26,750 nucleotides of DNA, taken from UHGV virus genome UHGV-1449992. The stretch is one strand, 5' to 3'. A program made the translations under genes and the position numbers. Position 1 is the first letter of the stretch. Every line of letters starts with the position of its first letter. This DNA comes from a virus. A model generated the notes under the pieces. The model was not told the DNA's origin and did no database searches. It was given only the letters and a program-made list of their open reading frames with translations. Below, piece by piece: positions 2,441-26,750 of the stretch.

Positions 2441-2446
2441 GTCACC

Positions 2447-5710: not shown

Positions 5711-5721
5711 CTGAGGAGATT

Positions 5722-9154: not shown

Positions 9155-9910
9155 ATGTCTAACATTGTCCCCATGAATTATGATGACCATTCATTCCCTT
9201 TTGCTTCTGATTGCTGGTTTAATGCCACAGTTGCTGCAAAGCATCACAGGAAGAGAGTGAAGAACTGGACAATTCTGGAGTCAACAAGGGATTACGTTGT
9301 CGAGTTGGCGCAAGAGCTTGATATTGAACCATTCAATTCTAAAGGGCAGATTTCTACCCTTTTAATTAGGATTGAGAAAGGCCGTTATGGCGGCACATGG
9401 ATGCACCCAGAGTTGGCCGTTGAGTTCGCCCGTTGGTTGTCAGTCAAATTTGCCCGCGCCTGCGACCGCCACATTAAAAATTTGCTGCTGAGTAAAAATT
9501 TTCAGCTCACTGAAGATCAGATTGTCGGCCTCATGGTCTGCCAGCAACCCAGTTCCTGGGAAAAAAGGTTTAAAGACCCGTTCTACCAGGCACTGTCGAA
9601 AATGTCCGGCATTCCTTATTTTGGTCATGTCGGCGGATGTCCGGCGTTGTTCGGTCAGATCACCGCTCGCTGGGTCTACGGTGTAGCACTTCCTGATTAT
9701 GTCTATCAGGCAGCTAAACAGGCAGCCGGCAACAGCAAGGAGAAGATTCATCAGCATCTTAAGCCGGATGCGCTGGAGAAGGTCGAGCAGCAACTGATCG
9801 CCGTCACAAACATTGCCAGTTGCAGCATTGACCAGAAGGACTTTGAGGCCCGTTGCATGGCTGCCTTTCCTGTCAAAGGGCAGATGAAGCTGCTGTATGC
9901 GGCGGCATAA
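9155..9910 (+). CDS. KilA-N domain protein (N-terminal KilA-N DNA-binding domain; C-terminal region possibly P63C-like); accessory gene
   Basis: ATG 9155 preceded by AAGGTAA. N-terminus ...FNATVAAKHHRKRVKNWTILESTRDYVVELAQ...RIEKGRYGGTWMHPELAVEFARWLS has the hallmarks of KilA-N; not a structural gene. Confidence 0.65.
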   Translation: MSNIVPMNYDDHSFPFASDCWFNATVAAKHHRKRVKNWTILESTRDYVVELAQELDIEPFNSKGQISTLLIRIEKGRYGGTWMHPELAVEFARWLSVKFARACDRHIKNLLLSKNFQLTEDQIVGLMVCQQPSSWEKRFKDPFYQALSKMSGIPYFGHVGGCPALFGQITARWVYGVALPDYVYQAAKQAAGNSKEKIHQHLKPDALEKVEQQLIAVTNIASCSIDQKDFEARCMAAFPVKGQMKLLYAAA

Positions 9911-9912
9911 CC

Positions 9913-10170
9913 ATGAATAACCGAATCGTTGAGTGCGCCTCCAGAGCGGGGCGCGACTTCTCTGAGTTCATGAAAGGCGAGAAGAACATGATGGAGGCGC
10001 TGCGGTCTGCGGAGGAATTCACCGAGCAGTTACGCATTCACGGCTGCGTTAATCACCATTTCGTCAATTTCATGATGATGAAAGCGATAATGAAGGTGTT
10101 CGACGATATGCAACGCGAGGAGCAGCGTGAAGAGCGCCGAAGAAAACGAGCAGAAAAGAAAGGCAAATAG
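9913..10170 (+). CDS. Small hypothetical protein (85 aa) with strongly basic/acidic C-terminal tail; accessory gene
   Basis: ATG 2 nt after the KilA-N stop codon (translationally coupled geometry); C-terminus DDMQREEQREERRRKRAEKKGK. Confidence 0.45.
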   Translation: MNNRIVECASRAGRDFSEFMKGEKNMMEALRSAEEFTEQLRIHGCVNHHFVNFMMMKAIMKVFDDMQREEQREERRRKRAEKKGK

Positions 10171-10186
10171 CCCACCCGTGTGGGCT
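10169..10186 (+). terminator. Stem-loop after the small accessory gene (weak terminator or RNA-stability hairpin)
   Basis: AGCCCAC-CCGT-GTGGGCT perfect 7-bp stem overlapping the stop codon; poor U-tract. Confidence 0.35.
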
Positions 10187-10202
10187 TTCATCGCTAACTA
10201 CA

Positions 10203-10253
10203 GCGATCCTTTTGCAGCCTTAGAGGCCGCTTTGTTTGCAGCATCAGCTTGAA
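10203..10253 (+). pseudogene. Remnant 3' end of a second T-like tail assembly gene (recombination scar)
   Basis: About 48 nt with 6 mismatches relative to 8919-8968; translates SDPFAALEAALFAASA* versus the authentic T C-terminus GDPFAGLEAALLAASE*. Confidence 0.6.
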
Positions 10254-10328
10254 TTAAACAACGATAGCTGAAGTCTTTCTTAACCAATGGTAGGATTTGA
10301 GTACTTTTCTACCTTTTGGGATAAAAAA

Positions 10329-10850
10329 ATGAAAAAAATATTGGGTGTTTTATCTTTAGTCGTTTTTGCTATAGCATTTATTATTGCGTTAAGGCAACCA
10401 ATATCAATCGTATTTCTTATTGCTGTTTTGGCGATTCCTTTAAAATATATAGATAAAATTGGCGGAGAGATTGCTTCTCTTTTGATAATATTCGGTTCTA
10501 TCTTTGTTTTGTTTTTTGTTAACTCAATGGTTCCTTTATGGGGGGAGAGGTATGAGAATCATGAGGAGTTAGTGAGAATTAGCGAGAGCGATAGGCAGAA
10601 AAGATACAACAATATGAATGTTATATCAGCAAGCAACTCTGGTGTTAAGTCTGCATTAAAAGACCCTGAATCCGCAACCTTCAAAAATCAGAGCGTTGGT
10701 CGTGAAGGGTATGTGTGCGGTCAGGTAAATGCTAAAAACAGCTTTGGTGCATACGCCGGGTTTAAAAGGTATGTAAGTAAAAATGGCATGACAATTATTG
10801 ATGATGGCGGATCTGAATTTTCGAAACTATGGGGCGAGATTTGTAAATGA
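10329..10850 (+). CDS. AT-rich accessory membrane protein (about 3 predicted TM helices plus a soluble roughly 100-aa C-terminal domain), function unknown
   Basis: ORF with visibly lower GC than its neighbours; hydrophobic N-terminus KILGVLSLVVFAIAFIIAL...IVFLIAVLAIPL...LLIIFGSIFVLFFV. Alternative in-frame start at 10287. Confidence 0.6.
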   Translation: MKKILGVLSLVVFAIAFIIALRQPISIVFLIAVLAIPLKYIDKIGGEIASLLIIFGSIFVLFFVNSMVPLWGERYENHEELVRISESDRQKRYNNMNVISASNSGVKSALKDPESATFKNQSVGREGYVCGQVNAKNSFGAYAGFKRYVSKNGMTIIDDGGSEFSKLWGEICK

Positions 10851-10870
10851 TACATTCTTGCTAATTAAAG

Positions 10871-10893
10871 AAAACCGCTTAGGCGGTTTTTTT
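10871..10893 (+). terminator. Rho-independent terminator after the membrane-protein gene
   Basis: AAAACCGC-TTAG-GCGGTTTT followed by a T run, directly upstream of the tape-measure start. Confidence 0.6.
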
Positions 10894-10911
10894 ATATCTG
10901 CGAGGATATAA

Positions 10912-13900
10912 ATGGCAACTTTACGCGAGCTTATCATTAAGGTTTCAGCAAACTCTCAATCATTCCAGACTGAGATCGCCCGCGCATCACGCATGGGGCA
11001 AGACTATTATAAAACTATGCAGAATGGTGGGCGTCAGGCTGCTGCTGCTGCGAAGGAAAGCCAAAAAGCTCTTTCCGAGTTAACGGATGGATTTGCTTCA
11101 GCGGGTCGAGCTGCCACAATTGCAGCTGCAGCATTTGCAACAGGAAAACTGGTTCAGATTGCAGACCAATGGAACTCAGTAAATGCACGGCTTAAACAAG
11201 CCTCAGTGTCTACGAATGATTTTACTTTATCTCAAACCCGATTAATGGCGATCAGCCAGAGTACGGGCACTGCTTTTACTGATAACGCTAATTTATTTTC
11301 ACGCGCGGCAGCATCAATGCGTGAATTTGGCTACAGCTCAGATGAAGTACTCAAAATCACCGAAGCGGTATCAACAGGACTAAAACTATCTGGTGCAAGT
11401 ACAGAAGAGGCCGGCTCTGTTATTACCCAGTTTAGCCAAGCGCTTGCTCAAGGTGTTTTGCGTGGCGAAGAGTTTAACGTGGTTAACGAAGCCGGGGATC
11501 GTGTCATCCGTGCCCTGGCTGCTGGTATGGGGGTTGCCCGAAAAGATCTTAAAGCGATGGCTGACCAGGGGCAACTCACGATTGATAAAGTCGTACCAGC
11601 ATTAATCAGCCAGTTAGGTGTGTTACAGGGGGAGTTTTCCTCGTTACCGCCGACAGTTTCCGGTTCAATGCAAAAAGTCACTAACTCCTTTATGGCATGG
11701 GTTGGAGGGGTAAACCAGGCTACTGGTGCAACAGACGCACTTTCTGGCGGTCTTGATGGGCTGGCAGGTACGCTGGATTCTCTTACATCTTCTGCTGTCA
11801 GCGGGGCCCTCAGTGACGTAGCAGATAATATGTCACTAATTACCACCGCCGCAGGTGGCCTAGTTGGGATCGGATTAGCCCGGTATCTTGGCGGGATTGT
11901 TACCAGCGCAAGCAGCGCTACTGGCGCACTTATTTCAGCCGCAAAATCTGAAGTAGCCCTTGCAGTAGCCCAGGAAAAAGCCGCGCAATCTTCCGTTGCT
12001 GCTTCCCGCGCCGCAGTTTATCGTGCCCAGCAAGCCCTTCAGAGTGCTAAAAGTGCAGATGTTCAGGCCGCACAACAGGAGAGGGTTGCAGCCGCAGAAG
12101 CAAAGGTTACTGCTGCACAAGGTCGATTGACTACAGCCCTCGCCACCGGGACAGCTACAGAAAAAGTACGAGCACGAACAGCTTTGGAGCGGGCTCAGGC
12201 CGGACTTGTGGCAGCAAAAAATGCCGATGCACAGGCTATTGCAGAAAGAAAACTTGCCACAGCTCAAGCGGCGCTTAGCCGTAATATTTCAGGTAGGGTT
12301 TCTGCTCAAAATAACCTTAACAGCGTTACCTCTGTCGGCACCCGGTTGATGAGCGGGGCTCTTGGGCTGGTCGGTGGTATACCCGGGTTAGTAATGCTGG
12401 GTGCTGGCGCATGGTACGCTATGTATCAAAGCCAGGAACAAGCAAGAAAATCAGCTCAGGAGTATGCCAGCCAAATAGATCAAATCAGAGAAAAAACCTC
12501 CTCAATGACCCTACCTGAGGTCGATAGTAATCGCAGATTATCGGTTGAGGCGATGCAGGAACAAAAGCGCCTAATCGAAGAACAAGAACGGAGCGTTAAA
12601 AGTCTTAACGGACAAATAAAGGATTTAAATGAAAGTAGAAACAAGCCAGGCATTACTCAAGAAAATGATTTGAATATTACAAAGGCTATCGCAATTCTTA
12701 CCGAACAGATTGTCGTAGAAGAAGACAAGCTTCGTCAGATGCGAGAAAAGGCAAGCGATATACTAAAGGCGCAGGAGGAACAAGAAAGAAGAAGAAACGA
12801 TCTTATTAAAGATCGCGCCTGGCGTCAAAATGCTGAATACCAGAACCTTGTAATGATGACTGGTAAGTATTCCGAAGTTAACCGTTTACTTGGATTGGGA
12901 AACCAGCTTTTAATGGAACGGCAGGGCTTGGTTAACGTGCCAATGCGAATGCCTCAGGCTGATTTAACATCTCAACAAACAGCCGCACTGGAAAAAAGCC
13001 GCCGGGATTTAGATCTCTCTACACGTAAAGGCGAAGACAAGGAGCGCACCAGACTTGGCTATGTTGCAGATGATTTGGGGCTGAAGGATGAACCTCAATT
13101 CCAGACCGGAAGACAAGAGATAATTAATAATGGCATTAAAGAATGGAAAAATAACGAGGCAAATAAACCCACCCGGAAAGCGCCAAAAAGCGAAGAATTA
13201 AAAGCCGCCGAGAAGACAGAAGATGTTTACAAGCGTCTTATTAAACAGCAGGAAGAACAAATCGCTTTGGGAAGCCAGAATACCGAACTGGCTAAAGTCA
13301 AATACCAGGTGACGCAGGGTGAATTAGCTTCTCTTGAACAAGCCAAAAAAGAAATAATTCTGCAAAATGCAGCGCTTATCGATCAGAAAAACATTGCTGA
13401 ACAGTTAAAAACGTTCCGTGAGGGGCTGGCTGACAGCAACGCTGCTGCTCGTGACCGGGGAAATATTGATTTTCTTGGCGCCGGGATGGGGGATAAGGCC
13501 CGCGACCGCATGAAGGAAATGGCAGATATTCGTACTGATTTTCTCAAACAGCAGCGCGACCTGCAGCGGGATTTCAGCAAAGGTCAGATTTCTGAGGACC
13601 TGTACAAACAGCAAACGGAAGCGCTTCAGGCGGCGCTTACTGAACGGCTCCAGATTCAGGAGGACTACTACAAGAAAACCGATGAACAGCAGTCAGACTG
13701 GCGGGCGGGGATCAGCGATTCACTGATGAACTACGCCGATCAGGCTGCTGACCTCAGTTCAATGGCTGCCACCGCAACCAGCGAAATTCTGGATGCCACC
13801 ACTAACTCTATCTCCAACAACCTGACCAGCGTCCTGACTGGTGCGACTTCGTTCAAAGATGGGATGTCGAACATTTTCAGCTCTCTGGGTGAAACGGTGA

Positions 13901-14493
13901 TTAAGACGTTGATACAGATGGCAACACAGGCGCTAATCACCAAAGCGATTATGGCGTCGTTCGGCGGTGGGGCTGGTGGAATGTTCGGGAGTCTTCTTGG
14001 CGGAGGTGGGGGAGGTGGCAGCACCGGGACGGCCATTCAGAGCGCTGGTGCTAATCTTTCGTTTAATGCTCTGGGTGGTGTCTACGATTCACCTTCACTT
14101 TCCGCATACAGCGGCGGTGTATACAGCACTCCGCAGTACTTTGCGTTTGCGAAAGGCGCGGGCGTGTTCGGTGAAGCGGGACCCGAAGCGATTATGCCCC
14201 TTACCCGTGGCGCTGACGGTTCGCTGGGGGTTCGTGCGGTTGGACGTGAGTCACCGGCAGTCCAGGATGCTGCAAGGCAGCAGCAGGAAAGACAACTTCT
14301 TTCAACAGGTGATATCAACGTCAATTACCACCTCACAGGTAAACCTGATGATGTGATGATGCAGACAATGGATGCCCACGGTCGCCGCCTGGCTAAACAG
14401 ATTAAATCTGAACTGACGAGCGACGTTAACAATCCTCAAAATGCTTTCGGTAGAGCACTTTACTCCAACCTTCAGCCCAAAAAACCACGATAA
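10912..14493 (+). CDS. Tail tape measure protein
   Basis: 1193-aa ORF, Ala/Gln-rich coiled-coil-like body, Gly-rich stretch near the C-terminus; position after G/T. Confidence 0.9.
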   Translation: MATLRELIIKVSANSQSFQTEIARASRMGQDYYKTMQNGGRQAAAAAKESQKALSELTDGFASAGRAATIAAAAFATGKLVQIADQWNSVNARLKQASVSTNDFTLSQTRLMAISQSTGTAFTDNANLFSRAAASMREFGYSSDEVLKITEAVSTGLKLSGASTEEAGSVITQFSQALAQGVLRGEEFNVVNEAGDRVIRALAAGMGVARKDLKAMADQGQLTIDKVVPALISQLGVLQGEFSSLPPTVSGSMQKVTNSFMAWVGGVNQATGATDALSGGLDGLAGTLDSLTSSAVSGALSDVADNMSLITTAAGGLVGIGLARYLGGIVTSASSATGALISAAKSEVALAVAQEKAAQSSVAASRAAVYRAQQALQSAKSADVQAAQQERVAAAEAKVTAAQGRLTTALATGTATEKVRARTALERAQAGLVAAKNADAQAIAERKLATAQAALSRNISGRVSAQNNLNSVTSVGTRLMSGALGLVGGIPGLVMLGAGAWYAMYQSQEQARKSAQEYASQIDQIREKTSSMTLPEVDSNRRLSVEAMQEQKRLIEEQERSVKSLNGQIKDLNESRNKPGITQENDLNITKAIAILTEQIVVEEDKLRQMREKASDILKAQEEQERRRNDLIKDRAWRQNAEYQNLVMMTGKYSEVNRLLGLGNQLLMERQGLVNVPMRMPQADLTSQQTAALEKSRRDLDLSTRKGEDKERTRLGYVADDLGLKDEPQFQTGRQEIINNGIKEWKNNEANKPTRKAPKSEELKAAEKTEDVYKRLIKQQEEQIALGSQNTELAKVKYQVTQGELASLEQAKKEIILQNAALIDQKNIAEQLKTFREGLADSNAAARDRGNIDFLGAGMGDKARDRMKEMADIRTDFLKQQRDLQRDFSKGQISEDLYKQQTEALQAALTERLQIQEDYYKKTDEQQSDWRAGISDSLMNYADQAADLSSMAATATSEILDATTNSISNNLTSVLTGATSFKDGMSNIFSSLGETVIKTLIQMATQALITKAIMASFGGGAGGMFGSLLGGGGGGGSTGTAIQSAGANLSFNALGGVYDSPSLSAYSGGVYSTPQYFAFAKGAGVFGEAGPEAIMPLTRGADGSLGVRAVGRESPAVQDAARQQQERQLLSTGDINVNYHLTGKPDDVMMQTMDAHGRRLAKQIKSELTSDVNNPQNAFGRALYSNLQPKKPR

Positions 14494-15462: not shown

Positions 15463-15843
15463 ATGTTTAATCCTGATAAATACCGTTCAGTCAGCTGGCT
15501 GAAAGGCGGTCGCGTATACCCGCTACTCGACTGCTTCGGCATTGTGAATGAAATCCGGCGCGATCTGAAATTACCCCTCTGGCCCGATTTCGCCGGAGTG
15601 ACCAAAGACGGGGGAGGCCTCGACCGGGAGGCGAGAAGGTTGATGCTTTCCCTGCAACGCTGCGAGCCCTGCGAAGGGGCTGGCGTGGCCTGCTATTCCG
15701 GCTCAACGGTTACCCATGTCGGGATCGTTGTCATGCTCGATAACCAGCTGCAGGTCGCGGAATGTAATCCAGGCTCGGGGGTTACGTTTCTGCCACTGGC
15801 GCGATTCATACGACGGTTTAACCGCGTGGAGTTCTGGCAATGA
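15463..15843 (+). CDS. NlpC/P60 (C40 peptidase)-like tail protein
   Basis: 126-aa ORF with candidate Cys...His catalytic pair (LDCFGIV ... THVGIVV) in papain-like spacing; position equivalent to lambda gpK-type proteins. Confidence 0.6.
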   Translation: MFNPDKYRSVSWLKGGRVYPLLDCFGIVNEIRRDLKLPLWPDFAGVTKDGGGLDREARRLMLSLQRCEPCEGAGVACYSGSTVTHVGIVVMLDNQLQVAECNPGSGVTFLPLARFIRRFNRVEFWQ

Positions 15844-18800
15844 CGATAAAGTTTTTTCCGTCCCGGTTGCCGGGTGAACCCCTGGAGACGCACGAACATG
15901 GCGCGATGACCCTGCATGAGTGGATGGCCAGGAATGTCCCGAGCTACTCGCAGGACAGAAAGCATCCTGTTGCGGTCGAACTGGACGGCCGGGCTGTTCC
16001 ACCTGCGGAATGGCCACTATGTTTGCTGCGGCCAGACAGCGATGTGCGGATTTACCCGATCCCGTATGGAACCGGCCTGGAAATCGCCGTGTGGGTATCG
16101 GTTGCCGTATCTATTGCCTCTACGGCCTATGCGCTGTTTTTCGCCCCGAAACCAGAGCTGGGCGGGTTTTCGTCAGGCAATTCAGCATCACTGGACCTGA
16201 ACCCGGCAAAAGCGAATACAGCTAAGCTTGGCGATCCTGTTCGTGAGGTATTCGGAAGAAACAGAATTTATCCGGATTACCTGGTGCAGCCGGTCACTCG
16301 CTTTGACCCCAATGATCCCACCCGGATGACGGTCGAAATGTTTGTCTGCCTCGGGTATGGACGTTTCTCTTATACCGGCGGTGATTTTCGGGTGGGTGAA
16401 ACTCCTGCTCTGCCGTTAGGCGATGGCTTTTCTTATACCAGCTATGGGCCGGGCGATAACGTGGCGGGGGACCGTCGCAGCGAGGTCTGGTTCAACAGTA
16501 CAGAAGTTGGCGGGACATCAAGCGGGTCAGGTCTGGATATGGCTCAGACTGCCCCTGAAGCCAGTGATATCGTTGCTGATGCCATGACTGTTAGCGGTGC
16601 ATCTGTTTCGTTTTCAGGTCTCGATGTCGATGATGACAACGATGATGATGAAGATGAGAACAAGCTGCCTCCTGGCTGGATTGAGGGTGCAATTGTCACT
16701 CTGAAAGCGCCAGTGAATTATCAGGTATCCATCGAGGGCGGTTTTAACGTGCTGACAGGAGACGTCGTGTCAGAGATTGCGCCATTCAGTGGAATGCCTG
16801 TCACCCTAACGTTTAACGGTACTGACTATGACCTGCAGATCGCCACGTATACCCCTCACCAGGACGCCGTTCCGGGAACAGGGGGAGCGACTGCGGTATT
16901 ACGCGCCAGTGCGTCGCCGTCAACGTATGACTTTACGACAACCAGCCAGACCTTTGCTCTGACCTGGCAGGGTATCACCTATACCATATCTCTGGTCGCC
17001 AACTACGGCACAATGTCTGGCTTGCTCGCAGCGATTAATGGCGGGTTGAATGGTTCGGGGCTCATTGCTCAGGATGATGGCGGCGTGATACGTATCGTCG
17101 AGATCTCCAGCCCCTGGCGTGGCGGCTCCATTACGTCATCTTTCCTGCCGGCGTCAGTATTTGGTGACGGCCCGGTATTTACTGCTGGTGCAGCCTCCAG
17201 CGGCGGAAGCCCTGCGGTAACAGCCAGCATCACGCTGGCATACGATTCTGGCACTGCCTTTTCCGGATTGCCGGAAGGAACCCAGCGGATTTCCCTGGCG
17301 CATCGTGGCAACGAATACCAGATAGCGTCTACTGATGGCCCCTCTGCGACCGTACAGCGTGTGGTTAACGGTGTCATCGACAGCACCTGGTCAGGCTTTA
17401 TGACCCGTACCGTCGTGGATTTTGCCGCGTCTGGTATTAACGATAATGAAACCTGGCTAGGCCCCTTTCTGGCCTGCCCGCAAAATGAAGTTGTGGACGC
17501 CTTCGAGGTCAACTTTGCTTTCCCAAACGGAATTTGCGGGTTCCAGAACAACGGGAATAAGCGGGTCCGCCATGTCGAGTATGAAATCCAGTATCGCGTT
17601 TATGGTTCCGGTTCAGGGTGGACGAGTAAGCCAGGGGTTTACGCGCTTAAAAACATTAATGGCCTCGGTTTTACAGAGCGTTTTGATCTGTCCTCTCCCG
17701 GGCTGGTGGAGGTTCGATGCCGCCGCCGTAACGAGCAGGGGAGCAACAACGCGAGAGACAGCATGTTCTGGCAGGCGCTCAGAGGTCGTTTGCTTTCCCG
17801 TCCAACCTCCTACGCAGGGATATCAACAATAGGGATCACGGTTGAAACCGGCGGCCAGCTGGCGGCGCAGTCAGACAAGCGTGTGAGTGTTGTCGCCACG
17901 CGAAACTATGATGGCGGTGGTGACAGGACAATCAGCGGTGCGTTCCTGCATCTTGCCCGCAGTCTGGGATATCGCGACGACCAGATCGACATTGCGGGGC
18001 TCAGTACGCTGGAGGCCACCTACTGGACGCCACGAGGCGAGTATTTTGACCATCAGGCAAGCAGTGACAGCACGTCCGCAAAGGATATTTTCGACAAGAT
18101 TGCTGAAGCAGGCATGGGGTATTTTCTGCTGTCTGACGGCTTACTTTCCGTCGGGCGTGAAGGGGTCAAAAGCTGGACCGGAATCATCACCCCCCAGGAT
18201 ACTGTCGAGGAAATGCAGACATCATTCAGGGTGCCTTCGGAGGACGATTTTGATGGTGTGGATGTGAAATACATCAATCCCGTGACCTGGGCGGAGGAGA
18301 CCGTACAGTGCCGGACGCCTGAAAATCCGTTCCCCCGGAAAACGGAGGCTTACACCATCGATGTCGTCATGACTGCGGATCGTGCCTGGCGTATCGGGAT
18401 GCGCCGGTTAATGAAATATCTCCATCAACGCCGGACGTATACGGCTACAACTGCAATGCTGGGATGGTGCCATGATTTTGGTGACCACATCATTTTGTCA
18501 GATGATATTCGAACCGGGAAAACCCAAAGTTGCCTGATTGACGCAATGACATACGACTTTCAGGAAATAACGCTACATGTCACCGAGCCTCTGGACTGGA
18601 GCTATACAAATCCCCGGTGCTGGATACTGTTTCAGAACAGTCGTCCATCGTCACGGATGCTGACGCCGCAGCGGATAGATGATTTCACTCTTACCATACC
18701 TTACAACGACGATCTGCACCCGGAAGACTGGATTATGGACGACCCTGATATTGATCCACCGCGTTTGCTGTTCTGCGACAGTGAAAAAGGTGCCCGGCAT

Positions 18801-18917
18801 GGGATAGTCCAGGAGGTTGCCCCATCCGGTGAAAGCAACTGTCAGATTACCGCGCCGGAATATAAAGAAATTTTCTACGCCTACGACGACGCCACATACC
18901 CCGGCGACGTCGCTTAA
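15840..18917 (+). CDS. Tail tip / host-specificity protein (J-like, TipJ-type); N-terminal hydrophobic segment suggests a fused gpI-like portion
   Basis: 1025-aa ORF with 4-nt overlap to the upstream gene; size and position match a central tail fibre/tip protein. Confidence 0.75.
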   Translation: MTIKFFPSRLPGEPLETHEHGAMTLHEWMARNVPSYSQDRKHPVAVELDGRAVPPAEWPLCLLRPDSDVRIYPIPYGTGLEIAVWVSVAVSIASTAYALFFAPKPELGGFSSGNSASLDLNPAKANTAKLGDPVREVFGRNRIYPDYLVQPVTRFDPNDPTRMTVEMFVCLGYGRFSYTGGDFRVGETPALPLGDGFSYTSYGPGDNVAGDRRSEVWFNSTEVGGTSSGSGLDMAQTAPEASDIVADAMTVSGASVSFSGLDVDDDNDDDEDENKLPPGWIEGAIVTLKAPVNYQVSIEGGFNVLTGDVVSEIAPFSGMPVTLTFNGTDYDLQIATYTPHQDAVPGTGGATAVLRASASPSTYDFTTTSQTFALTWQGITYTISLVANYGTMSGLLAAINGGLNGSGLIAQDDGGVIRIVEISSPWRGGSITSSFLPASVFGDGPVFTAGAASSGGSPAVTASITLAYDSGTAFSGLPEGTQRISLAHRGNEYQIASTDGPSATVQRVVNGVIDSTWSGFMTRTVVDFAASGINDNETWLGPFLACPQNEVVDAFEVNFAFPNGICGFQNNGNKRVRHVEYEIQYRVYGSGSGWTSKPGVYALKNINGLGFTERFDLSSPGLVEVRCRRRNEQGSNNARDSMFWQALRGRLLSRPTSYAGISTIGITVETGGQLAAQSDKRVSVVATRNYDGGGDRTISGAFLHLARSLGYRDDQIDIAGLSTLEATYWTPRGEYFDHQASSDSTSAKDIFDKIAEAGMGYFLLSDGLLSVGREGVKSWTGIITPQDTVEEMQTSFRVPSEDDFDGVDVKYINPVTWAEETVQCRTPENPFPRKTEAYTIDVVMTADRAWRIGMRRLMKYLHQRRTYTATTAMLGWCHDFGDHIILSDDIRTGKTQSCLIDAMTYDFQEITLHVTEPLDWSYTNPRCWILFQNSRPSSRMLTPQRIDDFTLTIPYNDDLHPEDWIMDDPDIDPPRLLFCDSEKGARHGIVQEVAPSGESNCQITAPEYKEIFYAYDDATYPGDVA

Positions 18918-18946
18918 TACCCCATAAAAATCCCTTATTAACTCTT

Positions 18947-18972
18947 TTCGCTCAAACCCTCGTTTGCGCGAA
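18947..18972. other. 26-bp near-palindrome resembling a Hin/Gin/Cin/Pin-family invertase crossover site (left copy)
   Basis: TTCGCTCAAACC-CT-CGTTTGCGCGAA; half-sites match each other at 10 of 12 positions and fit the hix/gix pattern TTnTCnnAAACC-NN-GGTTTnnGAnAA as recalled from memory. An identical copy in inverted orientation lies at 26716-26741. Confidence 0.45.
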
Positions 18973-19300
18973 CGCCTTTTTTGGAGCAAAAAACATGGCC
19001 TTTAACCCGGAGCTGGGGAGCACGTCTCCCGCTGTTCTGCTCGATAACGCCGAGCGCCTGGATAAGCTAGTGAATGGTGATGTGCTGACCGAACCGGACC
19101 GCGCGGGCGTTGATCTGGATACTTGGCGCGGAATGATGGCGAAAAACGATGAGGTTAGGAAAAACCTGATCCCATTGAGTAAGCAATACATGACGATTGA
19201 GGCGGCGCAGGCTGATATCGCGAATATTCCAGAGGGGTCAACGACCTATGTGAGAAGCCCAGGCAATATAGCCCTGGCATTTGAAGTTATTAATAATGGG
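18947..19300. repeat. Left arm of an inverted repeat (leader plus 5' roughly 300 nt of the tail fibre gene)
   Basis: Leader 18947-18997 is identical to the reverse complement of 26692-26741 apart from a 1-nt A-run indel; the coding part is about 80% identical at nucleotide level. Confidence 0.8.
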
Positions 19301-22300
19301 GGAGTGCTTGAACCTACATGGCGAGCAATGCCGTCGCAGGCTTATGTAGATTTTACTTTATCCAGCGCGGGACAACTGCCTTCAGCGATAATGACCCGTG
19401 ACGAAATATACGCTTCGGTCGAGAGATACGGGCAGTGGACTCGTACTGATACCAACGGATGGGCTGTCGGAGTCAAATCCAGTGGTAAGCCAGTGAACAG
19501 CCTGGCGCTGTGGCTGAATAACCTTTCTGAAATCAGCACGCTTTCTGTTTCTGTTTATCACCGCACTGTTGACGGTTTTTCAGTTCTGCCGGGCGCCGCT
19601 ACAGACAAGCTAATGAGTAGCCAGTCGGTCGCATCTGAAGACGTAGCGATAACTCAAGCACTGGCGCAAGGGTATCAGTTAGTCAGGCTCACCGTGCCTG
19701 ATGTACTGCTTAAATCTGATGAAATCATTCTGTTCGTCGTTAAAGCGCTCGATGCTTCAGGCGCTCCAGTTTATCTGGGGTGTGGCCGGGCGCCGGTTGA
19801 ATCAGGACAGGTTTCTGATTTAAATAACTCTCTGGGCGGTTTCTGGCTTGATGTCGCCCAGACAGCATGGAAGACAGTTACCTCATCTGACAGTCTGTAC
19901 CGGCTGGCTTACAGGGTCGGCTATTTCAGTACGGCAGCCAATAATTACTCGGCCTTTGCTCTCTCCCGTAGTGTTGTGCAGGAGGTTGTGGGAAACAGCT
20001 CAAATTATGCGACGGGCACGACCTTGTCAGGGCGATTTTATGGCTGGGCACTTGGTTTCAAATCTGTGCCAGGGGCGTTCGATATGATCACCCTTTACCA
20101 TAACAACCTCGATGCGGTGGCATATATTGATTACAGGATTGTTCTGCGCGAATTGACTTACGGTACTGCTGCGCAGCCTCTCGGCACTATCGCAACGGAC
20201 AGAGAGGTATTCTCATCACGTAAACTTCCACCGCCGCAGGGGAATAGCCTTTTCACCGCTGTTGATTACCCAGTTCCTGAACTTGTGGTACCCGCAGGAT
20301 ATTTTGCTGCAATAGAACTGCACCCGCTGCAGTGGAACGGCGATACGGCGGACATGGGATGCCAGGCTCATAACTATGCAGGGGAGACATTGCCAACCGA
20401 TATTGGCAGAGGCTATTTTGTCAATCGTAATGATAACGTATGGCGCGTAATATCAGATTCTACTAATGGACTCGCGTATGCACTTGCTCTTGCCGAGTGG
20501 GGAGGCATCCCTCAGGGGGTTGAAAAAGCACAGGGTGAAATCTCGACGCTGAATTCACTAGTTGTTCAGACCAGCCAGACCGTTGCGGAAATGAATACCT
20601 ATGAGATGGAAACGTCTTTTGAAAAAGCATCAGATAATCTTCAGTGGTCCTATGCATCTATGGTTGAATCTGCTCGATTCTGGCGGTGGGCGGTGCCAGT
20701 TTCTGCAGAAGCATCTGAGTTAAAATCCATCGCCATGTGGCTTGATGGCGTATCTCTTAATACCATTCTTCAATGCGACGTTTATTTCCGGCTGACATCA
20801 AACCAGACCAATACATCGGGACCGGGAGCTGTATCTGGTGACATTCTGGCCTTGACAGCAAATGTCACGCCGTTGCCAGCTAATACAGCGATGACAAAAA
20901 TCACGCTCCCGGTAGACCGTCTGACGGTACCGGCTGGTTATTTCCCGATCGTGGCTGTGACCGCATATTACAGTGCTGGCGTGAGCGGAAATCTGGGGTC
21001 AGGCTCGAAATCCTACAGCGCTGGTGATAATCCGGCTACGTACCTCAAGGGCTGGTACCAACGTTTTGACCGCACCGGTTGGCAGACTATCCCTGCGGGG
21101 ACATATGCCGCTGTCGCTGTCAGTGCTGTACTTGTCACCGCTCAGGATCTGCAGGAGAAAATTGCGTCTCTTGAATCCGGTTCTGATGTAACCGCCGATT
21201 ATTCCGGGGACAGCATCGATCGCTATGCACCGCAGGTAGCGGCTACTGGATTAACAGCCGTCATTACTGGTAACGCCATTCTCCGCGGGTCAGCAAAACC
21301 TATATCGGGGACGCTGACATTTGATGCGACAACGGTTGGTAGCACGACTGTCGCCAGCAGTCTTGTGCAGGCATCAGCGGCAGCACAATGGCCATCTAAC
21401 CCTAATGCCTGGTTGGGCGAGAAGCGCATCAGCGCAGTGACCGTAACCAATACTGCAACGAGCACACCGTTAACACCAGGGATGCACTATAACGTTGACA
21501 GCTACGGCGGGAAGCTGAGAGGACTGACGGCAACCACCTACGCTGTCAGTGTGACGTTTACGTACACGCGCGAGCGTTACGACCTGATTCAGATTGACCC
21601 GACGTCACTCGCACTGTCAGTGAAAAAAGGGATGGAACGGGCATTTGACGTTCAGGAATATCGTCCCGCGCCTGATGCCGGAAAAGTCGCGCTTTATTAC
21701 GTTCTGGTCGCCGGAAGCACGCTCGAATTCGATCCGGTTCACCGTTATGTAGACCTTGGCGGCGAGATGCTGGATGGCAAGGATTATGGCTTGCTGCGGC
21801 AGCACAACCGGCGCTTCCTTCAGAAAACGCTGGCGCGCCTGAATCGTGGTCAGGCGATTACGCTGGTAGGGCACGGAGACTCAATCACCGCAGTGTCTAA
21901 TATCAACAGCCCGGCGACGACACCGAACGGAACAACGCGTGACCTGCAGAGGTTTTTGCAGGGAGGCTATGGCAGCGACACACTGACGAACTTGTATCCC
22001 GCGCAGGACTGGGGGGATGGCGGTGGTGCTGTTCATGTCAGTATCGGCTGGAACCGGGTGCTGAAGAAGCATTTTGAAGATGTTTACGGGTCAGAAGTGA
22101 CGTATTACAACTTCGGAATGTCGGGGACGACCTCGGCATCTGGTGCGGGTTCAGACCGTCTCGGCGCGATTACCGCGCTTTCACCGCACCTGACGGTTGT
22201 CGGGTTCGGTATGAACGATAACGCGGGAAGTACGCTGTACGGAAACCTGATGACCATCATCAGCACGCTGAAAGCTGCGGGTTCTGAGGTTGTTCTGATG

Positions 22301-22555
22301 CCGGTGCCGCGCACGTCAAATACCGAAGACGGACGCTATACCCAGGACCAGACCCGGTATATGAACCGGCAGATATACAGAGCCGCGATTGACGGAGGCG
22401 CAGCATACGCACCGGCGGACTGGCTGACGGACGACAACAGCAAGGGAGGCATGGGCATTGCCACCACCTCTCTTACTGGCTCAGACCTGCGCAACCATCC
22501 GGGCGGATACGAAATGAGCATCTACGGAAAGGCGCTGGTTAATGTGTTCTGCTGA
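18995..22555 (+). CDS. Tail fibre/spike protein A: conserved N-terminal anchor domain, central body, C-terminal SGNH/GDSL-type hydrolase (esterase) domain
   Basis: 1186-aa ORF with GGAG ribosome-binding site. C-terminal motifs LVGHGDSITAV (GDS block), VVGFGMNDNAG (GxND block) and SDLRNHPGG (Asp/His block) are in SGNH order. Confidence 0.8.
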   Translation: MAFNPELGSTSPAVLLDNAERLDKLVNGDVLTEPDRAGVDLDTWRGMMAKNDEVRKNLIPLSKQYMTIEAAQADIANIPEGSTTYVRSPGNIALAFEVINNGGVLEPTWRAMPSQAYVDFTLSSAGQLPSAIMTRDEIYASVERYGQWTRTDTNGWAVGVKSSGKPVNSLALWLNNLSEISTLSVSVYHRTVDGFSVLPGAATDKLMSSQSVASEDVAITQALAQGYQLVRLTVPDVLLKSDEIILFVVKALDASGAPVYLGCGRAPVESGQVSDLNNSLGGFWLDVAQTAWKTVTSSDSLYRLAYRVGYFSTAANNYSAFALSRSVVQEVVGNSSNYATGTTLSGRFYGWALGFKSVPGAFDMITLYHNNLDAVAYIDYRIVLRELTYGTAAQPLGTIATDREVFSSRKLPPPQGNSLFTAVDYPVPELVVPAGYFAAIELHPLQWNGDTADMGCQAHNYAGETLPTDIGRGYFVNRNDNVWRVISDSTNGLAYALALAEWGGIPQGVEKAQGEISTLNSLVVQTSQTVAEMNTYEMETSFEKASDNLQWSYASMVESARFWRWAVPVSAEASELKSIAMWLDGVSLNTILQCDVYFRLTSNQTNTSGPGAVSGDILALTANVTPLPANTAMTKITLPVDRLTVPAGYFPIVAVTAYYSAGVSGNLGSGSKSYSAGDNPATYLKGWYQRFDRTGWQTIPAGTYAAVAVSAVLVTAQDLQEKIASLESGSDVTADYSGDSIDRYAPQVAATGLTAVITGNAILRGSAKPISGTLTFDATTVGSTTVASSLVQASAAAQWPSNPNAWLGEKRISAVTVTNTATSTPLTPGMHYNVDSYGGKLRGLTATTYAVSVTFTYTRERYDLIQIDPTSLALSVKKGMERAFDVQEYRPAPDAGKVALYYVLVAGSTLEFDPVHRYVDLGGEMLDGKDYGLLRQHNRRFLQKTLARLNRGQAITLVGHGDSITAVSNINSPATTPNGTTRDLQRFLQGGYGSDTLTNLYPAQDWGDGGGAVHVSIGWNRVLKKHFEDVYGSEVTYYNFGMSGTTSASGAGSDRLGAITALSPHLTVVGFGMNDNAGSTLYGNLMTIISTLKAAGSEVVLMPVPRTSNTEDGRYTQDQTRYMNRQIYRAAIDGGAAYAPADWLTDDNSKGGMGIATTSLTGSDLRNHPGGYEMSIYGKALVNVFC

Positions 22556-22573
22556 TTCATTTCATTAACAAAA

Positions 22574-22608
22574 CATTGCGGCTGTCAATTCTCATGACAG
22601 CCGCAATG
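22574..22608. terminator. Bidirectional terminator hairpin between the convergent fibre genes
   Basis: Perfect 14-bp stem CATTGCGGCTGTCA / TGACAGCCGCAATG with 7-nt loop, flanked by A/T-rich sequence on both sides. Confidence 0.6.
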
Positions 22609-22614
22609 ACCTTA

Positions 22615-25600
22615 TTAAAGACACGCTTTCCAGCAGTACAGACCTCCGTGATCGTATGTCGATGCGCCGTTACCCAGACCTTCATACAAATCGGAACGGT
22701 CAAAGGAAAGCATAAAAAGCTCCGTTTCATCTCCATTAGTGAACGGGACCAGCGTGCACCATGGCCCCGTTGTGTTCGGAGCCAGATACACATCCTGCAC
22801 AAATTCCCCCAGGAAGGTCAGACCTGCCTCATACTTGCGCAGATGCAGTCGGTTGGCCGTTCCTCCGCTTGTCAGGTAGGTTGTCTCGCCGAAATGAACG
22901 AACTGATTCCCGGTATCGCGCACGCCAGCAGGGACTTCTGCCGTCGTATATTCCGGCACAATACCGTCGTACAGCGTCGGGCTCCGGAAGGTTTTGCATC
23001 CACTGGAGATGGTGTTTCCCGTCATCACCCACTGGCTGCTCGACGTTTCATAGTAGAAATCAATATCCTCCACGTAGCTTGCCCCGATCCCGAAAAAACT
23101 GCCGTTGGCGTTCTTCAGTTGCACGGAGTTTCTGACGATGATCACGCCGCCCTGCAGCAAGTCCTGTTTCGTCTCAAAGTACAGTTTTGGTCGATTGTTA
23201 TCGGCCAGCCCTTTCCCCTGATAGTCCATACCGCAAGAGATGCCCTTCCAGCTCTGACTGTTCCGGTCATACACCGCCTTGATACTGTCATCACCCAGCA
23301 CGACATCCTCATCGGTTCCGTCAGTCCGAACCTGGAAAATCGCGCCCACCATCTGCACTTCACCGCTGTTGAAGTTGATACGGACTATCTGAGTGTACAG
23401 GTCGGAGATAGTGGTCCCTGTTCCCTCAACGAGAAAATAAAGCCAGTTACCGCGCTGAATAAACGTCCCGTCTTCATAGGTCAGAAAGCGAATGGAGACG
23501 GAATTCGCCCCGCTGGCAATTCGGTTTGAAAAACCACTAAAGACAGCAATATCACTGGCCGAATATGCATCCGTTTGTGCGAACACGTACGTTTTCCACG
23601 TGTCCAGGTATTCCAGCCTGCGGGCATCAAAGATGGCATAGTGCTCATAGCGGCCAATCCATTTCCACGTCCCGTCAGCGTTCACTTTTTTTAGCAGCAG
23701 TGACACCCCGGTATTCTGCACCTGAAGCACTGCGCCGGTCATATCCGAACCGGTGAACGTGGTGGTATCAAGCAGACTCCCTGCGGCGTAGATTTCACAG
23801 ATAACCTGGCTGTTCGAGACGCGGACCGAAACACTGTTCTGCTGGTCAACATCCGCGAACATTATCCCCATCGTGGCATTGCCTGCCAGCCTGTCGATCG
23901 CGATCTCACTGGTTGCAAAGGGCATATAGCGATCCGCGAACATCACCACCCGGCCATTTGCTGTCGGGTTACGGAAAGAGACCTTTCCTGCTGACCAGGA
24001 ATAAGCAAACACATTCCCGGCGGTGATATCGTAAATATTGCTCTGCAGATTCCAGGGATTGTTTTCCAGGTCCATAAAAGAGAGCATGAACGAGTCAGCG
24101 GCATTGTAAAAATCGCGACGCGCCCACTGCTTAGTGAAAGTGTATTCCAGAGGGTTGCTGAAACTGTCGAAGTCAGGCGTCTTTTCAGGCAGCCCGGATA
24201 AATCGACATGGTAAGGCGCGTTAAAAACTTTTGCTTTTACCTGACTGCTCCGCGAGGACTGCTCAATCATGGCGGATACGTCATTGAATCTGGCGACCTG
24301 ATTGGAATAAATCTTCCTGACGGCGTATACGGGATCGGTTGTTTTTCTGACGCGCACCGCAACGTAACCGTCCTGTGTGGCCACTCCGCGATACGTTGCC
24401 GTCACATATCCGCCGCCCGATTTGAAGGTGAAGAGGTCCGACACCCACCCCTTGTCCGCGTCACATTGCATGATATAGGCGATAAGTTCTCCGACGGTGG
24501 CGGAGCCGTACTGCCCGTACATCTCGACAGAGTCGCCTTTTCGCACCGGGATGTAATACATCCGCCAGACACTGTAAGCAGAGCCGGAGACGATATTACC
24601 GCCGCTGTACATTACTGAGTTATCAGCAATGACTGATGCCACGCTGGTATAATCGATGGTTTTTACCGGCCCTCTGAGGTCTGATGCAAAAGCTTTATCC
24701 TGAGACGTCCGTGTTATGGTTGCCGCGGGTGTGGTGACGCGTACGCGCACGTAAACGAAACCATCCTGGGTTGCCACGCCGGCCATTACGCCGTTACTGG
24801 TGACACCCGGTGATGTGTAAGTGGCAAGATTAGCCACCACCGCCATTGCCGCATCCAGCTGAATGATATAAGCAATAACTTCGCCTGCCGTGCCGGAGCC
24901 GATTTGCCCGAAATAGCGCACGATATCCCCCGCGCGAACAGGAACATACGCTGCTTTCCAGTTCTCACCTGCGGTGTCAGAAATCATTCCGCCTGAGTAT
25001 ATAACCCGCCCCGTGATAGTGTATGTATCCGGTGCACTGGTCACGTCCAGGGTTGTTCTGTTAGCCGCAGCAATATCGGCCGGGTTCATTACAGCGTATA
25101 CGTTGCCGGGCAGGGAAAACAGTTGAGTGGTCTTTGTAATGGTTGCTGCCGGATCAGTCACACGCACCCGGACATAAACAAAACCATCCTGTGTGGCGAC
25201 ACCAGTCATAACACCAGCGCTGGACGAACCGGGCGAAGTATAGGTGGCGAGTGGCGCCACAAATTTCATCGCACTGTCGAGCTGGATGATATAAGCCAGT
25301 ACCTGGCCCGAAGTGCCGGAGCCGATTTGGCCGTGATACTGAATAACCTCTCCTGCTTTCACGGGCAGATAAGCTGCTTTCCAGCTATCTCCTGCGTTGT
25401 CCACCACCGAACCATCCGCTGACATGACACGCCCGATAATATATGTGGTGGTTGAAGCATTAGTGACATCCGTAGTCACGCGGTTGGCCGCATTCACAGA
25501 CGTTACAGTTTTGACGCCGAATACATCTGCGCCGGGTGTGAACCGCTCTCTGCTCTGATAAATCGCCGCTTCCGGCGTGGTCACCCGCACACGGAAGTAA

Positions 25601-26694
25601 GCGAAACCGTCCTGGGTTGCCACGCCCGATAAAACACCTGTCTTTTGGACTCCTTCCGACGAATAAGTCACCAGATTCCCCACCACATTAAGGCTGGTGT
25701 CGAGCTGAATTATGTACGCCATCAGCTCGCCGGGAATAGCGCTACCAATCTCACCGTGATATTCGAGAGCATCCCCCTTTTTTACGGGAACGTAAGCAGC
25801 ACGCCATGACTCCCCGGCGGAATCTGTGCGGGTACCATCGGCATAAATCACCCGCCCGATCACCCATGCAGTACTTTGAGATGAGGTAATATCAACAAGC
25901 GGTTTATTCGCCAGTACGTTCTGATAACTGGCATAGCTTGCTACCCCTCCGGCGGCATCAATATCTGCCTCCACCAGAATTGTTTTTTTGCGCTGCGTCA
26001 GGGTGAATTCTGCCGTATCCCTCACCCGGACGTAAATATACCCGTCCTGAGTCGCAACTGCTGACAGAGTGGCTTTATCCGTTACGTTCCCGGTTGATGT
26101 CCACTCAGCCAGAGATGCCACGAATGCTTTGTTGGCGTCCAGCTGGATAAGATACGCTATCTGTTCGCCAGCAGTGTTAGAGCCCACTGTTCCGCTATAG
26201 GTGACGCTCTCGCCCGCCCTGACTTTCAGATACCAGGCATTCCATGTAGGACTCGATGCAGTAGAGCCATCAGCATATATCACCAGTCCGGCAACAATTT
26301 CCGCATCGCTTTTAGCATCCCCTGTTATGTAGCCCGTTTTCAGAGCGCTCATCGACGGCATAGCTCTGCCGGTAGCTGCCAGTGTGCCACCGTTATTAAT
26401 GTACTCATCCGCCAGTGTGCCGCCATCAGGGCTGCGTACATAGGTTGTTGAGCCATCCGGGATGTTTGCAATATCAGCCTGAGCCGCTTCAATCGTCATG
26501 TACTGCTTACTCAATGGCACAAGGTTCTGACGAATCTCGTCATTTTTCGCCATGAATCCGCGCCAGGTATCCAGATCAACACCCGCGCGATCAGGCACGG
26601 TGAAAGCGTCCGAATTCACCAGGTTATCCAGGCGCTCAGCGTTATCGCGCAGAACCGCCGGAGAAGCACTCCCCAGAGGAGGATTAAAGGCCAT
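22615..26694 (-). CDS. Tail fibre/spike protein B: same N-terminal anchor domain as protein A, five tandem copies of a roughly 140-aa domain, distinct roughly 570-aa C-terminal module
   Basis: Probable start at the ATG complementary to 26692-26694 (MAFNPPLGSASPAVL...), with the same leader as gene A; the six-frame ORF extends 10 codons further to 26724. First 110 aa are about 75% identical to protein A. Confidence 0.8.
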   Translation of the reverse strand: MAFNPPLGSASPAVLRDNAERLDNLVNSDAFTVPDRAGVDLDTWRGFMAKNDEIRQNLVPLSKQYMTIEAAQADIANIPDGSTTYVRSPDGGTLADEYINNGGTLAATGRAMPSMSALKTGYITGDAKSDAEIVAGLVIYADGSTASSPTWNAWYLKVRAGESVTYSGTVGSNTAGEQIAYLIQLDANKAFVASLAEWTSTGNVTDKATLSAVATQDGYIYVRVRDTAEFTLTQRKKTILVEADIDAAGGVASYASYQNVLANKPLVDITSSQSTAWVIGRVIYADGTRTDSAGESWRAAYVPVKKGDALEYHGEIGSAIPGELMAYIIQLDTSLNVVGNLVTYSSEGVQKTGVLSGVATQDGFAYFRVRVTTPEAAIYQSRERFTPGADVFGVKTVTSVNAANRVTTDVTNASTTTYIIGRVMSADGSVVDNAGDSWKAAYLPVKAGEVIQYHGQIGSGTSGQVLAYIIQLDSAMKFVAPLATYTSPGSSSAGVMTGVATQDGFVYVRVRVTDPAATITKTTQLFSLPGNVYAVMNPADIAAANRTTLDVTSAPDTYTITGRVIYSGGMISDTAGENWKAAYVPVRAGDIVRYFGQIGSGTAGEVIAYIIQLDAAMAVVANLATYTSPGVTSNGVMAGVATQDGFVYVRVRVTTPAATITRTSQDKAFASDLRGPVKTIDYTSVASVIADNSVMYSGGNIVSGSAYSVWRMYYIPVRKGDSVEMYGQYGSATVGELIAYIMQCDADKGWVSDLFTFKSGGGYVTATYRGVATQDGYVAVRVRKTTDPVYAVRKIYSNQVARFNDVSAMIEQSSRSSQVKAKVFNAPYHVDLSGLPEKTPDFDSFSNPLEYTFTKQWARRDFYNAADSFMLSFMDLENNPWNLQSNIYDITAGNVFAYSWSAGKVSFRNPTANGRVVMFADRYMPFATSEIAIDRLAGNATMGIMFADVDQQNSVSVRVSNSQVICEIYAAGSLLDTTTFTGSDMTGAVLQVQNTGVSLLLKKVNADGTWKWIGRYEHYAIFDARRLEYLDTWKTYVFAQTDAYSASDIAVFSGFSNRIASGANSVSIRFLTYEDGTFIQRGNWLYFLVEGTGTTISDLYTQIVRINFNSGEVQMVGAIFQVRTDGTDEDVVLGDDSIKAVYDRNSQSWKGISCGMDYQGKGLADNNRPKLYFETKQDLLQGGVIIVRNSVQLKNANGSFFGIGASYVEDIDFYYETSSSQWVMTGNTISSGCKTFRSPTLYDGIVPEYTTAEVPAGVRDTGNQFVHFGETTYLTSGGTANRLHLRKYEAGLTFLGEFVQDVYLAPNTTGPWCTLVPFTNGDETELFMLSFDRSDLYEGLGNGASTYDHGGLYCWKACL
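24325..26340 (-). repeat. Intragenic tandem repeat: five copies, period about 393-435 nt, each encoding a domain ending in the motif VATQDG(F/Y)xYxRVR(V/K)T
   Basis: Repeat-end codons map to about 26016, 25581, 25158, 24735 and 24342 on the minus strand; the DNA copies are recognisably similar (e.g. GTCACCCGCACACGGAAGTAAGCGAAACCGTCCTG versus GTGACGCGTACGCGCACGTAAACGAAACCATCCTG). Confidence 0.75.
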
Positions 26695-26741
26695 GTTTTT
26701 GCTCCAAAAAAGGCGTTCGCGCAAACGAGGGTTTGAGCGAA
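26390..26741. repeat. Right arm of the inverted repeat (leader plus 5' end of fibre gene B)
   Basis: Reverse complement matches 18947-19300 (identical leader, about 80% identical coding part). Confidence 0.8.
26716..26741. other. 26-bp hix/gix-like near-palindrome (right copy, inverted relative to 18947-18972)
   Basis: TTCGCGCAAACG-AG-GGTTTGAGCGAA is the exact reverse complement of the left copy. Confidence 0.45.
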
Positions 26742-26750
26742 AGACCGGAG

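Follow-up and report, generated by a model that had tools for sequence, protein, structure and literature searches.

The window analysed here, which comprises the whole of the IMG/VR metagenome contig IMGVR_UViG_3300045988_136756 (locus L026; 26,750 base pairs (bp)), was identified by open reading frame (ORF), Pfam and PHROG annotation as the late region of a lambda/HK97-like siphoprophage. Its right-hand part is highly likely to be a site-specific inversion switch of the Gin/Hin family, which exchanges two complete tail-fibre (receptor-binding protein) genes, here called A and B. The evidence for such a switch is good for the family of related loci, and it is strong but indirect for the window contig itself.

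According to the proposed mechanism, the late operon of this Klebsiella siphoprophage would end with the J-like tail tip gene, followed closely by the first of two inverted 26-bp crossover sites, and the two convergent fibre genes would lie between these sites, each furnished with a separate leader and ribosome-binding site and with an N-terminal anchor domain of approximately 115 amino acids (aa). As the leader lies inside the segment, each gene would carry its own translation start. A small serine invertase encoded just outside the right site would cut both sites at the central CT, rotate the strands and invert the segment. Late transcription would continue from J over the left site into the fibre gene that happens to face J, with expression confined to this J-proximal slot and a central hairpin separating the two modules. 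In the present orientation, gene A (of the SGNH esterase type) would be expressed, while the invertase-proximal gene B is probably silent and would be held in store; inversion would bring B into expression and change the host range of the phage.

Crossover sites and the genes between them

A first-pass annotation of the window, made from its sequence, had proposed a pair of inverted 26-bp near-palindromes of the hix/gix type around two large convergent receptor-binding protein genes. The pair proved to be exact and unique: the 26-mer TTCGCTCAAACCCTCGTTTGCGCGAA occurs in exactly two copies, inverted and 7.7 kb apart, no further match was found in the window even with three mismatches allowed, and none of 100 dinucleotide-preserving shuffles of the window contained it. 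Each site consists of two 12-bp half-sites, TTCGCTCAAACC and TTCGCGCAAACG, which are alike at 10 of 12 positions and flank the 2-bp core CT. The left site begins 29 nucleotides (nt) past the J-like stop codon, and both sites end 22 nt before a fibre ATG (Table 1). For comparison, the gix sites were taken from the phage D108 record, TTATCCAAAACGTCGGTTTACAGGAA within gene S and TTATCTAAAACCTCGGTTTACAGGAA upstream of gin. The window site was identical to these D108 gixL/gixR sequences at 16–17 of 26 positions, sharing the TT/AA ends, C5 and the AAAC and GTTT arms, which together with the half-site and core layout bears out the hix/gix-like assignment. The outer half-site positions differ, as would be expected for a different DNA-binding specificity. 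The placement of the crossover in the 5' leader, which the first-pass annotation had set apart from the arrangement in D108/Mu, was likewise upheld, as the D108 gix lies within gene S.

Including the leader, the perfect inverted repeat of the window measures 47 nt (18946–18992 and 26696–26742), and inward of it follow 283 nt of N-terminal coding sequence at 79% identity. The T-run and GGAG positions of the leader are conserved between the left and right copies, and RNA folding placed the GGAG Shine-Dalgarno sequence in the loop of a hairpin formed by the U-run and the A-run.

The two genes bracketed by the sites were found as proposed, convergent and on opposite strands. The listed TTG start of gene B at 26724 is a mechanical extension of the ORF, and the ATG homologous to the start of A is at 26694. 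Comparison of the two proteins showed approximately 80% identity over the first ~115 aa and no relation over the remainder, an arrangement that would fit two alternative fibres for one attachment point. PHROG matches of the shared N-terminal domain fall in several families of phage proteins, some of which are labelled tail fibre, and gene B matches phrog_23037. In gene A, the N-terminal anchor domain of ~115–120 aa is accompanied by a C-terminal GDSL/SGNH esterase domain (Lipase_GDSL_2, E 1.4e-10, aa 1014–1148), and the receptor-binding part matched only the window contig itself in the IMG/VR search. A homologue of gene B, 95.5% identical across the whole gene, stands directly after J in two other loci (L036 and L018), from which it follows that B-type genes do occupy the expressed slot. 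Gene B also contains five tandem repeats (24350–26061, minus strand; 393–435 nt spacing, or about 131–145 aa each) with 68–79% nucleotide identity to the reference copy. Among the window ORFs, no plausible gene for a small fibre-assembly chaperone (U/U' or Tfa type) was found between or after A and B; some relatives carry an accessory gene of ~250 aa without a Pfam match. Promoter-like matches within the segment did not exceed those in shuffled sequence (5 found, 7.3 expected).

Table 1. Positions of the predicted switch components and adjoining features in the window
Feature	Position	Strand	Remark
J-like (TipJ) tail tip gene	15840..18917	+	Last constant gene of the late operon; reads into the predicted invertible segment
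Left (J-side) crossover site, TTCGCTCAAACC-CT-CGTTTGCGCGAA	18947..18972	+	Core dinucleotide at 18959–18960
Leader within the segment (T-run, GGAG, A-run, then ATG)	18973..18994	+	Would travel with gene A
Fibre/receptor-binding protein gene A, 1186 aa	18995..22555	+	Predicted expressed position in the present orientation
Intergenic hairpin, 14-bp stem	22574..22608	.	Terminator-like, T-run on the minus strand; parts the two convergent genes
Fibre/receptor-binding protein gene B, 1359 aa	22615..26694	-	Invertase-proximal position, predicted to be silent here
Right (invertase-side) crossover site, identical to the left, inverted	26716..26741	-	Core at 26728–26729
Start of the invertase-side flank	26733..26750	+	Last 8–9 nt, GACCGGAG, match the conserved flank of relatives

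The invertase and the family of two-site loci

The ORF list agrees with the earlier observation that no recombinase gene is visible in the window, which ends 9 nt past the right site. The sequences outside the sites of 36 site-bearing IMG/VR loci fell into two classes, being either the 3' end of J or a conserved sequence ending in TTGTAAAAAGCTCCGGTC, and the last 8 nt of the window match the second class. In contig 2700989586_000006, this flank leads, 43 nt from the site, into a divergent ORF of 185 aa with Pfam matches to Resolvase (E 2.7e-49) and HTH_7. Residues 1–178 of the invertase aligned with Mu Gin (structures 4m6f and 3uj3; E 8e-70), with the catalytic Ser9 present; the enzyme is approximately 62% identical to Mu Gin and measures 179–189 aa across the homologous loci. 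The serine invertase of roughly 190 aa that had been predicted to the right of the site is thus found 43 nt beyond it in homologous loci.

These loci include a sister contig from the same metagenome (contig 3300045988_127275, locus L025). The last 77 nt of the window (26674–26750) match positions 730–806 of L025 exactly, and the next base differs. A length of 77 is a common de Bruijn k-mer size for assemblers, and together with the exact overlap this makes an assembly-graph junction with a sister phage the simplest reading of the contig end. The B-type gene of L025 is 97.6% identical to gene B of the window, and 43 nt past its site L025 encodes an intact invertase of 189 aa. Judging from this continuation, the invertase is very probably present in the window phage. 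The contig end was also considered as a sign of inversion heterogeneity, given that the 47-nt repeat plus 8 nt amounts to 55, a possible k-mer size; this was rejected in favour of the exact 77-nt overlap with L025.

An IMG/VR search with the invertase returned at least 595 relatives, and the best 80 of these (91–100% identity) were analysed. In approximately 62 of the best 80 loci, a site lies at a fixed distance of 43 nt upstream of the invertase start and an inverted partner is found 5–8 kb away, beside the J gene; the 43-nt distance itself was seen in about 70 loci. The two site copies of 65 distinct two-site loci were then set side by side, the right one reverse-complemented, and scored at each position. 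They agreed in 92–100% of loci at positions 1–26, with the exception of position 21 (78%), while agreement outside the 26 bp was mostly below 10% on the outer side and about 50% at the inner positions 27–31, with secondary peaks where the T-run and the GGAG ribosome-binding site lie. Of these loci, 64 have CT as the core, and in the remaining one both copies read CA, so that the copies match at both core positions in 65 of 65 loci. A serine recombinase needs such co-variation of the core for strand exchange.

The first-pass annotation had argued for selection on a DNA site rather than a recent duplication, on the grounds that the leader is essentially identical in the two copies while the adjacent coding sequence is only about 80% identical. 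The conclusion is borne out by the sharp box of identity at positions 1–26. As to the grounds, the stated contrast does exist in the window (47 nt perfect, then 79%), but the identity beyond 26 bp is peculiar to it, and in many relatives the two copies share the 26 bp and nothing more. The invariant part is exactly 26 bp, which therefore makes a stronger argument for selection on the DNA site.

The module is widespread in siphoprophages of Klebsiella and Escherichia coli. The cultured, temperate Klebsiella siphovirus KPP5665-2 (MF695815) carries both 26-bp sites and the order J (gp19), fibre (gp20), two convergent genes (gp21–gp22), invertase (gp23) and integrase, with 95% identity for the invertase gp23. 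A version of the invertase and site at approximately 84% identity was present in 20 of 5426 complete E. coli genomes, where the annotated layout reads TipJ, SGNH/GDSL hydrolase, two convergent genes and a recombinase. An isolate-genome contig of 6145 bp (L030, positions 1–6145) starts and ends at two inverted sites, with 1 nt outside each. Contig ends at both sites are typical of assemblers isolating an invertible or repeat-bounded segment, and could serve as a minable signature of the module. In L031 (14400–14731), the sequence adjoining the right site is not the invertase flank but the J 3' end in inverted orientation (88% identity to window positions 18731–19062), an arrangement that may stem from tail-to-tail prophages, an inverted duplication or a misassembly.

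Naturally inverted segments and alternative explanations

The inter-site segments were compared all-against-all, with thresholds of 93% identity and 80% of the length for a pair to be kept. Five such pairs were in the same orientation and five were inverted (L076/L092, L053/L103, L079/L089, L054/L074 and L076/L107), the latter with collinear flanks. Whole-locus alignments showed that the ends of the inverted block coincide with the site boundaries. The clearest case is that of L076 and L092, two prophage regions of one genome, whose segments are 99.97% identical over 5837 bp (2 differences) and flipped relative to each other, while their flanks are collinear and 99.7–100% identical within 300–600 nt of the sites. 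Cassette exchange exactly at the sites between co-resident prophages was considered for this pair and rejected, as the near-identity runs 300–600 nt beyond both sites. In loci of this type, the two segment ends have only the 26 bp in common, with the sequence diverging at once to either side and each gene taking its leader and N-terminus along, which means that the exchange has to fall within the 26 bp. Inversion of the site-bounded segment, as proposed for the window, is thus documented among its relatives by five pairs with breakpoints within the 26 bp.

Several observations weigh against a working switch in the window phage. The window contains no invertase gene, the enzyme being deduced from relatives and from the 77-nt overlap, and a scan of public metagenome contigs with the 46-nt site-plus-leader sequence yielded no flipped junction of the window phage (20 loci, none of its population). 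All ten complete E. coli genomes that carry an identical related prophage show one and the same orientation. Locus L036 retains a site and gene B after J and has neither a second site nor an invertase in the 8.6 kb available; it looks like a derivative that lost the switch and kept the site, implying that a site can outlive its switch. The predicted silence of the invertase-proximal gene has gene orientation and the absence of a consensus promoter as its only grounds. With regard to the Fis protein and enhancer on which inversion would be expected to depend, no pair of Fis-like motifs at 48-bp spacing was found in the invertase region of the relatives. Finally, the Hin residues reported for contact with Fis and the enhancer are K47, K/R48 and K/R51, Q151, R154 and L155, and H107 (PMC3798978). 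In the invertase aligned to Hin numbering, equivalents of the basic helix-B residues that are typical of invertases dependent on an enhancer (K46, R47 and R50), of H107 and of R154 are present, but two of the three proposed Fis-contact residues are substituted (Q151 by H and L155 by M).

The missing invertase gene, the ten uniform E. coli copies and the orphan site of L036 with B fixed after J would all be accounted for by a relic or locked switch, in which the segment is of invertible ancestry and no longer inverts, the invertase being lost, inactive or barely expressed and B a silent passenger; the E. coli phage 716R3, with one site and only a 70-aa fragment of the invertase, could be read in the same way. 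Set against this are the two window sites, which are perfect and identical, core included, the intact 1359-aa ORF of gene B, the flank and 77-nt overlap leading to an intact invertase in the same sample, and the inversions between near-identical copies in relatives. On balance, a relic or locked state is improbable for the window, and an operating Gin/Hin-type switch is preferred.

The ten E. coli prophages (L143–L152) are located beside icd/iraM, come from five countries (one record gives none) and differ at 0–1 positions in 9.7 kb. Their sites and invertase look intact, the latter starting with GTG. Ten out of ten copies in one orientation would be unlikely under free 50:50 switching, and the rate can therefore be very low or the state in lysogens biased; this suggests that switching in this lineage is very slow, biased or inactive. 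In L036 (3640–12277), the B homologue is followed by umuD/umuC-like ORFs in place of a second fibre. In Escherichia phage vB_EcoS-716R3 (L003, 16594–18588), the J-side site is followed by a single fibre, a retron-type reverse transcriptase and the Pin-like invertase fragment, and a defence gene has apparently taken the place of the second fibre and of most of the invertase.

RecA-dependent homologous recombination acting on the inverted repeats of leader and N-terminus could in principle cause inversions as well, and the window does contain a long inverted repeat (47 nt perfect plus 283 nt at 79%). The relatives speak against it, as L076/L092 and the other inverted pairs share only 26 bp at their ends, with leader and N-terminus travelling with the gene. 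An exchange that lies within 26 bp excludes homologous recombination across a longer repeat, and 26 bp is too short for efficient RecA exchange. A dedicated invertase at a fixed distance from the site and a core dinucleotide that is equal in both sites at every locus, including the CA/CA variant, would likewise not be explained, and RecA is accordingly given very little chance of being the cause.

The slightest probability of all attaches to the idea that the 26-bp element serves gene expression alone, as a terminator or attenuator hairpin with a ribosome-binding region, and was duplicated along with the fibre genes, both fibres being made simultaneously and B transcribed from its own right-hand promoter: the near-palindrome does fold into a hairpin followed by a T-run and also stands upstream of a fibre gene in contigs with one visible copy, but the T-run and site-adjacent sequence vary among loci where the 26 bp do not, no promoter-like site reading from the invertase side toward the fibre gene was found in L040, and an RNA signal would leave the invertase linkage and the inverted segments unexplained. 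A role of the site as an intrinsic terminator was rejected separately, as the consensus terminator scan did not flag it and its T-run context is not conserved.

Proposed control of the switch, known counterparts and neighbouring features

In L040, the region near the right end has a single promoter-like site, TTGAGC-17-TACAAT, which reads into the invertase and has its -35 hexamer within the outer half-site. The same hexamer in the outer half-site of the window (TTGAGC, 26733–26738) would be the -35 element of the predicted invertase promoter, the -10 element of which lies beyond the contig end. Since the -35 hexamer falls in the outer half-site, invertase bound at the right site could repress its own gene.

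Codons 11–30 of the invertase gene showed strong constraint at synonymous sites, with a mean codon entropy of 0.31 compared to 0.82 overall, a value reached in none of 5000 shuffles. The block lies 86–146 bp from the site centre. The 65-bp Hin enhancer sits in the 5' portion of the recombinase gene, some 100 bp away from hixL (PMC3798978), and the comparable position makes the constrained block a candidate enhancer. One Fis-like 15-mer, GCGCAGAATGTGAGC, is conserved with gin, though the assignment of Fis sites by motif is ambiguous.

A site-like sequence, GGGGATCAAAACCTCGATTTACAGAAA, was also noted inside the invertase gene at nt 31–57 (L040 10031–10057), in the same position in approximately 70 loci and within the constrained codons. 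It matches the phage's own site at 16 of 26 positions, with CT in the core register, and the Mu/D108 gix at 19 of 26, a score reached by 0.6% of synonymous recodings. No flipped state at this sequence was seen among 80 loci. Possible roles are those of an enhancer component, a quasi-site or a site for regulatory binding, and the sequence may work as a third binding site through which the enzyme is regulated.

The closest known counterpart is the G-Gin system of Mu/D108, with which the module shares an enzyme of ~62% identity, 26-bp sites of the AAAC..GTTT pattern and, compared with S-U/U'-S'-gin, convergent fibre modules with a terminator between them and an invertase just outside the right site that is transcribed away. 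In Mu/D108, however, the left gix lies inside gene S, a constant Sc N-terminal part is fused to alternative C-terminal parts, and the U/U' chaperones are swapped too, whereas in the window the sites lie in the 5' leaders, whole genes are predicted to be swapped, each with its own anchor domain and ribosome-binding site, and there are no U-like chaperone genes. The host phages also differ, Mu/D108 being a transposable myovirus and the window phage a lambda/HK97-like siphovirus. The enzyme, site type and layout are thus already known, while the crossover upstream of the start codons and the resulting whole-gene exchange appear to be new.

Other phage systems show the same likeness and the same difference. 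In the P1 C segment (Cin), the e14 P segment (Pin), the lambdoid tip-switching module of phage LLS (PMC12315714) and the gin shufflon of Enterobacter phage FRphi (10.1101/2025.07.22.666180), a serine invertase flips alternative fibre-specificity modules and thereby changes the receptor, but what is exchanged is described as the fibre tip or C-terminal domain, with the N-terminal part staying constant. No description of a crossover upstream of the fibre start codon was found in the searchable literature for these tip-switching systems. The Hin system of Salmonella, with its H segment (fljBA), employs the same recombinase family, 26-bp sites and a non-coding crossover that toggles expression of whole genes. 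It differs in that the 1-kb H segment carries the promoter and hin, whereas the 7.7-kb segment of the window carries the target genes, with promoter and invertase outside. Promoter-inversion switches such as the H segment and fimS place the promoter in the invertible element and the targets outside it, and the window segment does the reverse; it would be functionally closer to Hin, with the genes moving in place of the promoter.

Among closer relatives, the module goes unmentioned in the genome announcement of KPP5665-2, a phage with fibre genes other than A and B. A preprint (10.64898/2025.12.17.694638) describes an inversion of ~5 kb with five ORFs beside a DNA invertase in 'phage #4', a K. 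pneumoniae ST14 prophage, in which no ORF is disrupted, and interprets it only as possibly attenuating fibre production. The ST14 element is presumed to belong to the same family as the window. Neither report describes the sites or reads the module as a fibre switch, and no account of whole-gene fibre switching in such phages was found in the searchable literature.

Receptor-binding proteins with specificity for capsule and O-antigen types largely determine the host range of Klebsiella phages, and temperate phages are increasingly used to predict and engineer Klebsiella receptor specificity. A built-in switch would mean two host ranges per prophage genome, in a module seen in at least 65 distinct loci as well as in one cultured phage and the E. 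coli genomes above. Annotation and prediction pipelines would mis-score the silent fibre gene, and assembly breaks or mis-orientation are to be expected at the 26-bp sites. From an evolutionary point of view, a crossover in the 5' leader needs no shared constant exon, so that unrelated full-length fibres can be paired, in a design that is simpler and more modular than Mu G. For engineering, a 26-bp site and a small invertase that flip a payload of at least 7.7 kb would be a potentially useful part. The mechanism class is classical, and the value lies in the exchange of whole genes, in how common this design is among clinically relevant hosts and in the fact that no description was found.

A more tentative idea, held to be possible though rather doubtful, is that the 26-bp site and short leader act as a universal 'socket' before the start codon, so that any receptor-binding gene with the ~115-aa anchor would fit either slot, and that the invertase-proximal slot is a silent store for acquired fibre genes in a general two-slot cassette system. 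The silent store would fit with the receptor-binding part of gene A being unmatched elsewhere in IMG/VR. If true, the silent slot would keep new fibre genes without cost, a single flip would bring a stored gene into use, and the cassette would drive turnover of capsule- and O-antigen-type host range in temperate Klebsiella and E. coli siphoviruses, beyond a two-state toggle.

The remainder of the window follows the expected gene order, with small and large terminase, portal, protease, capsid, tail genes, tape measure (10912–14493) and the J-like tip protein. The nearest database phages are K. pneumoniae prophages, with ~90% identity that extends over J and ~330 nt into the gene that follows. 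The J-like gene has Pfam matches to FNIII-A_GpJ and Phage-tail_3 and matches phrog_469 (tail protein, E 1e-273), and its E. coli relatives are labelled TipJ. Between the tail chaperone genes (8256–8968) and the tape measure gene, the region 9071–10850 carries a gene with KilA-N and P63C domains (9071–9910), and positions 10001–11000 form a stretch of 40% GC with a 187-aa ORF of unassigned function. The KilA-N/P63C gene and the low-GC stretch probably represent a moron insertion; in relatives, the counterpart of this region is a YebO-like gene or an IS21 element.

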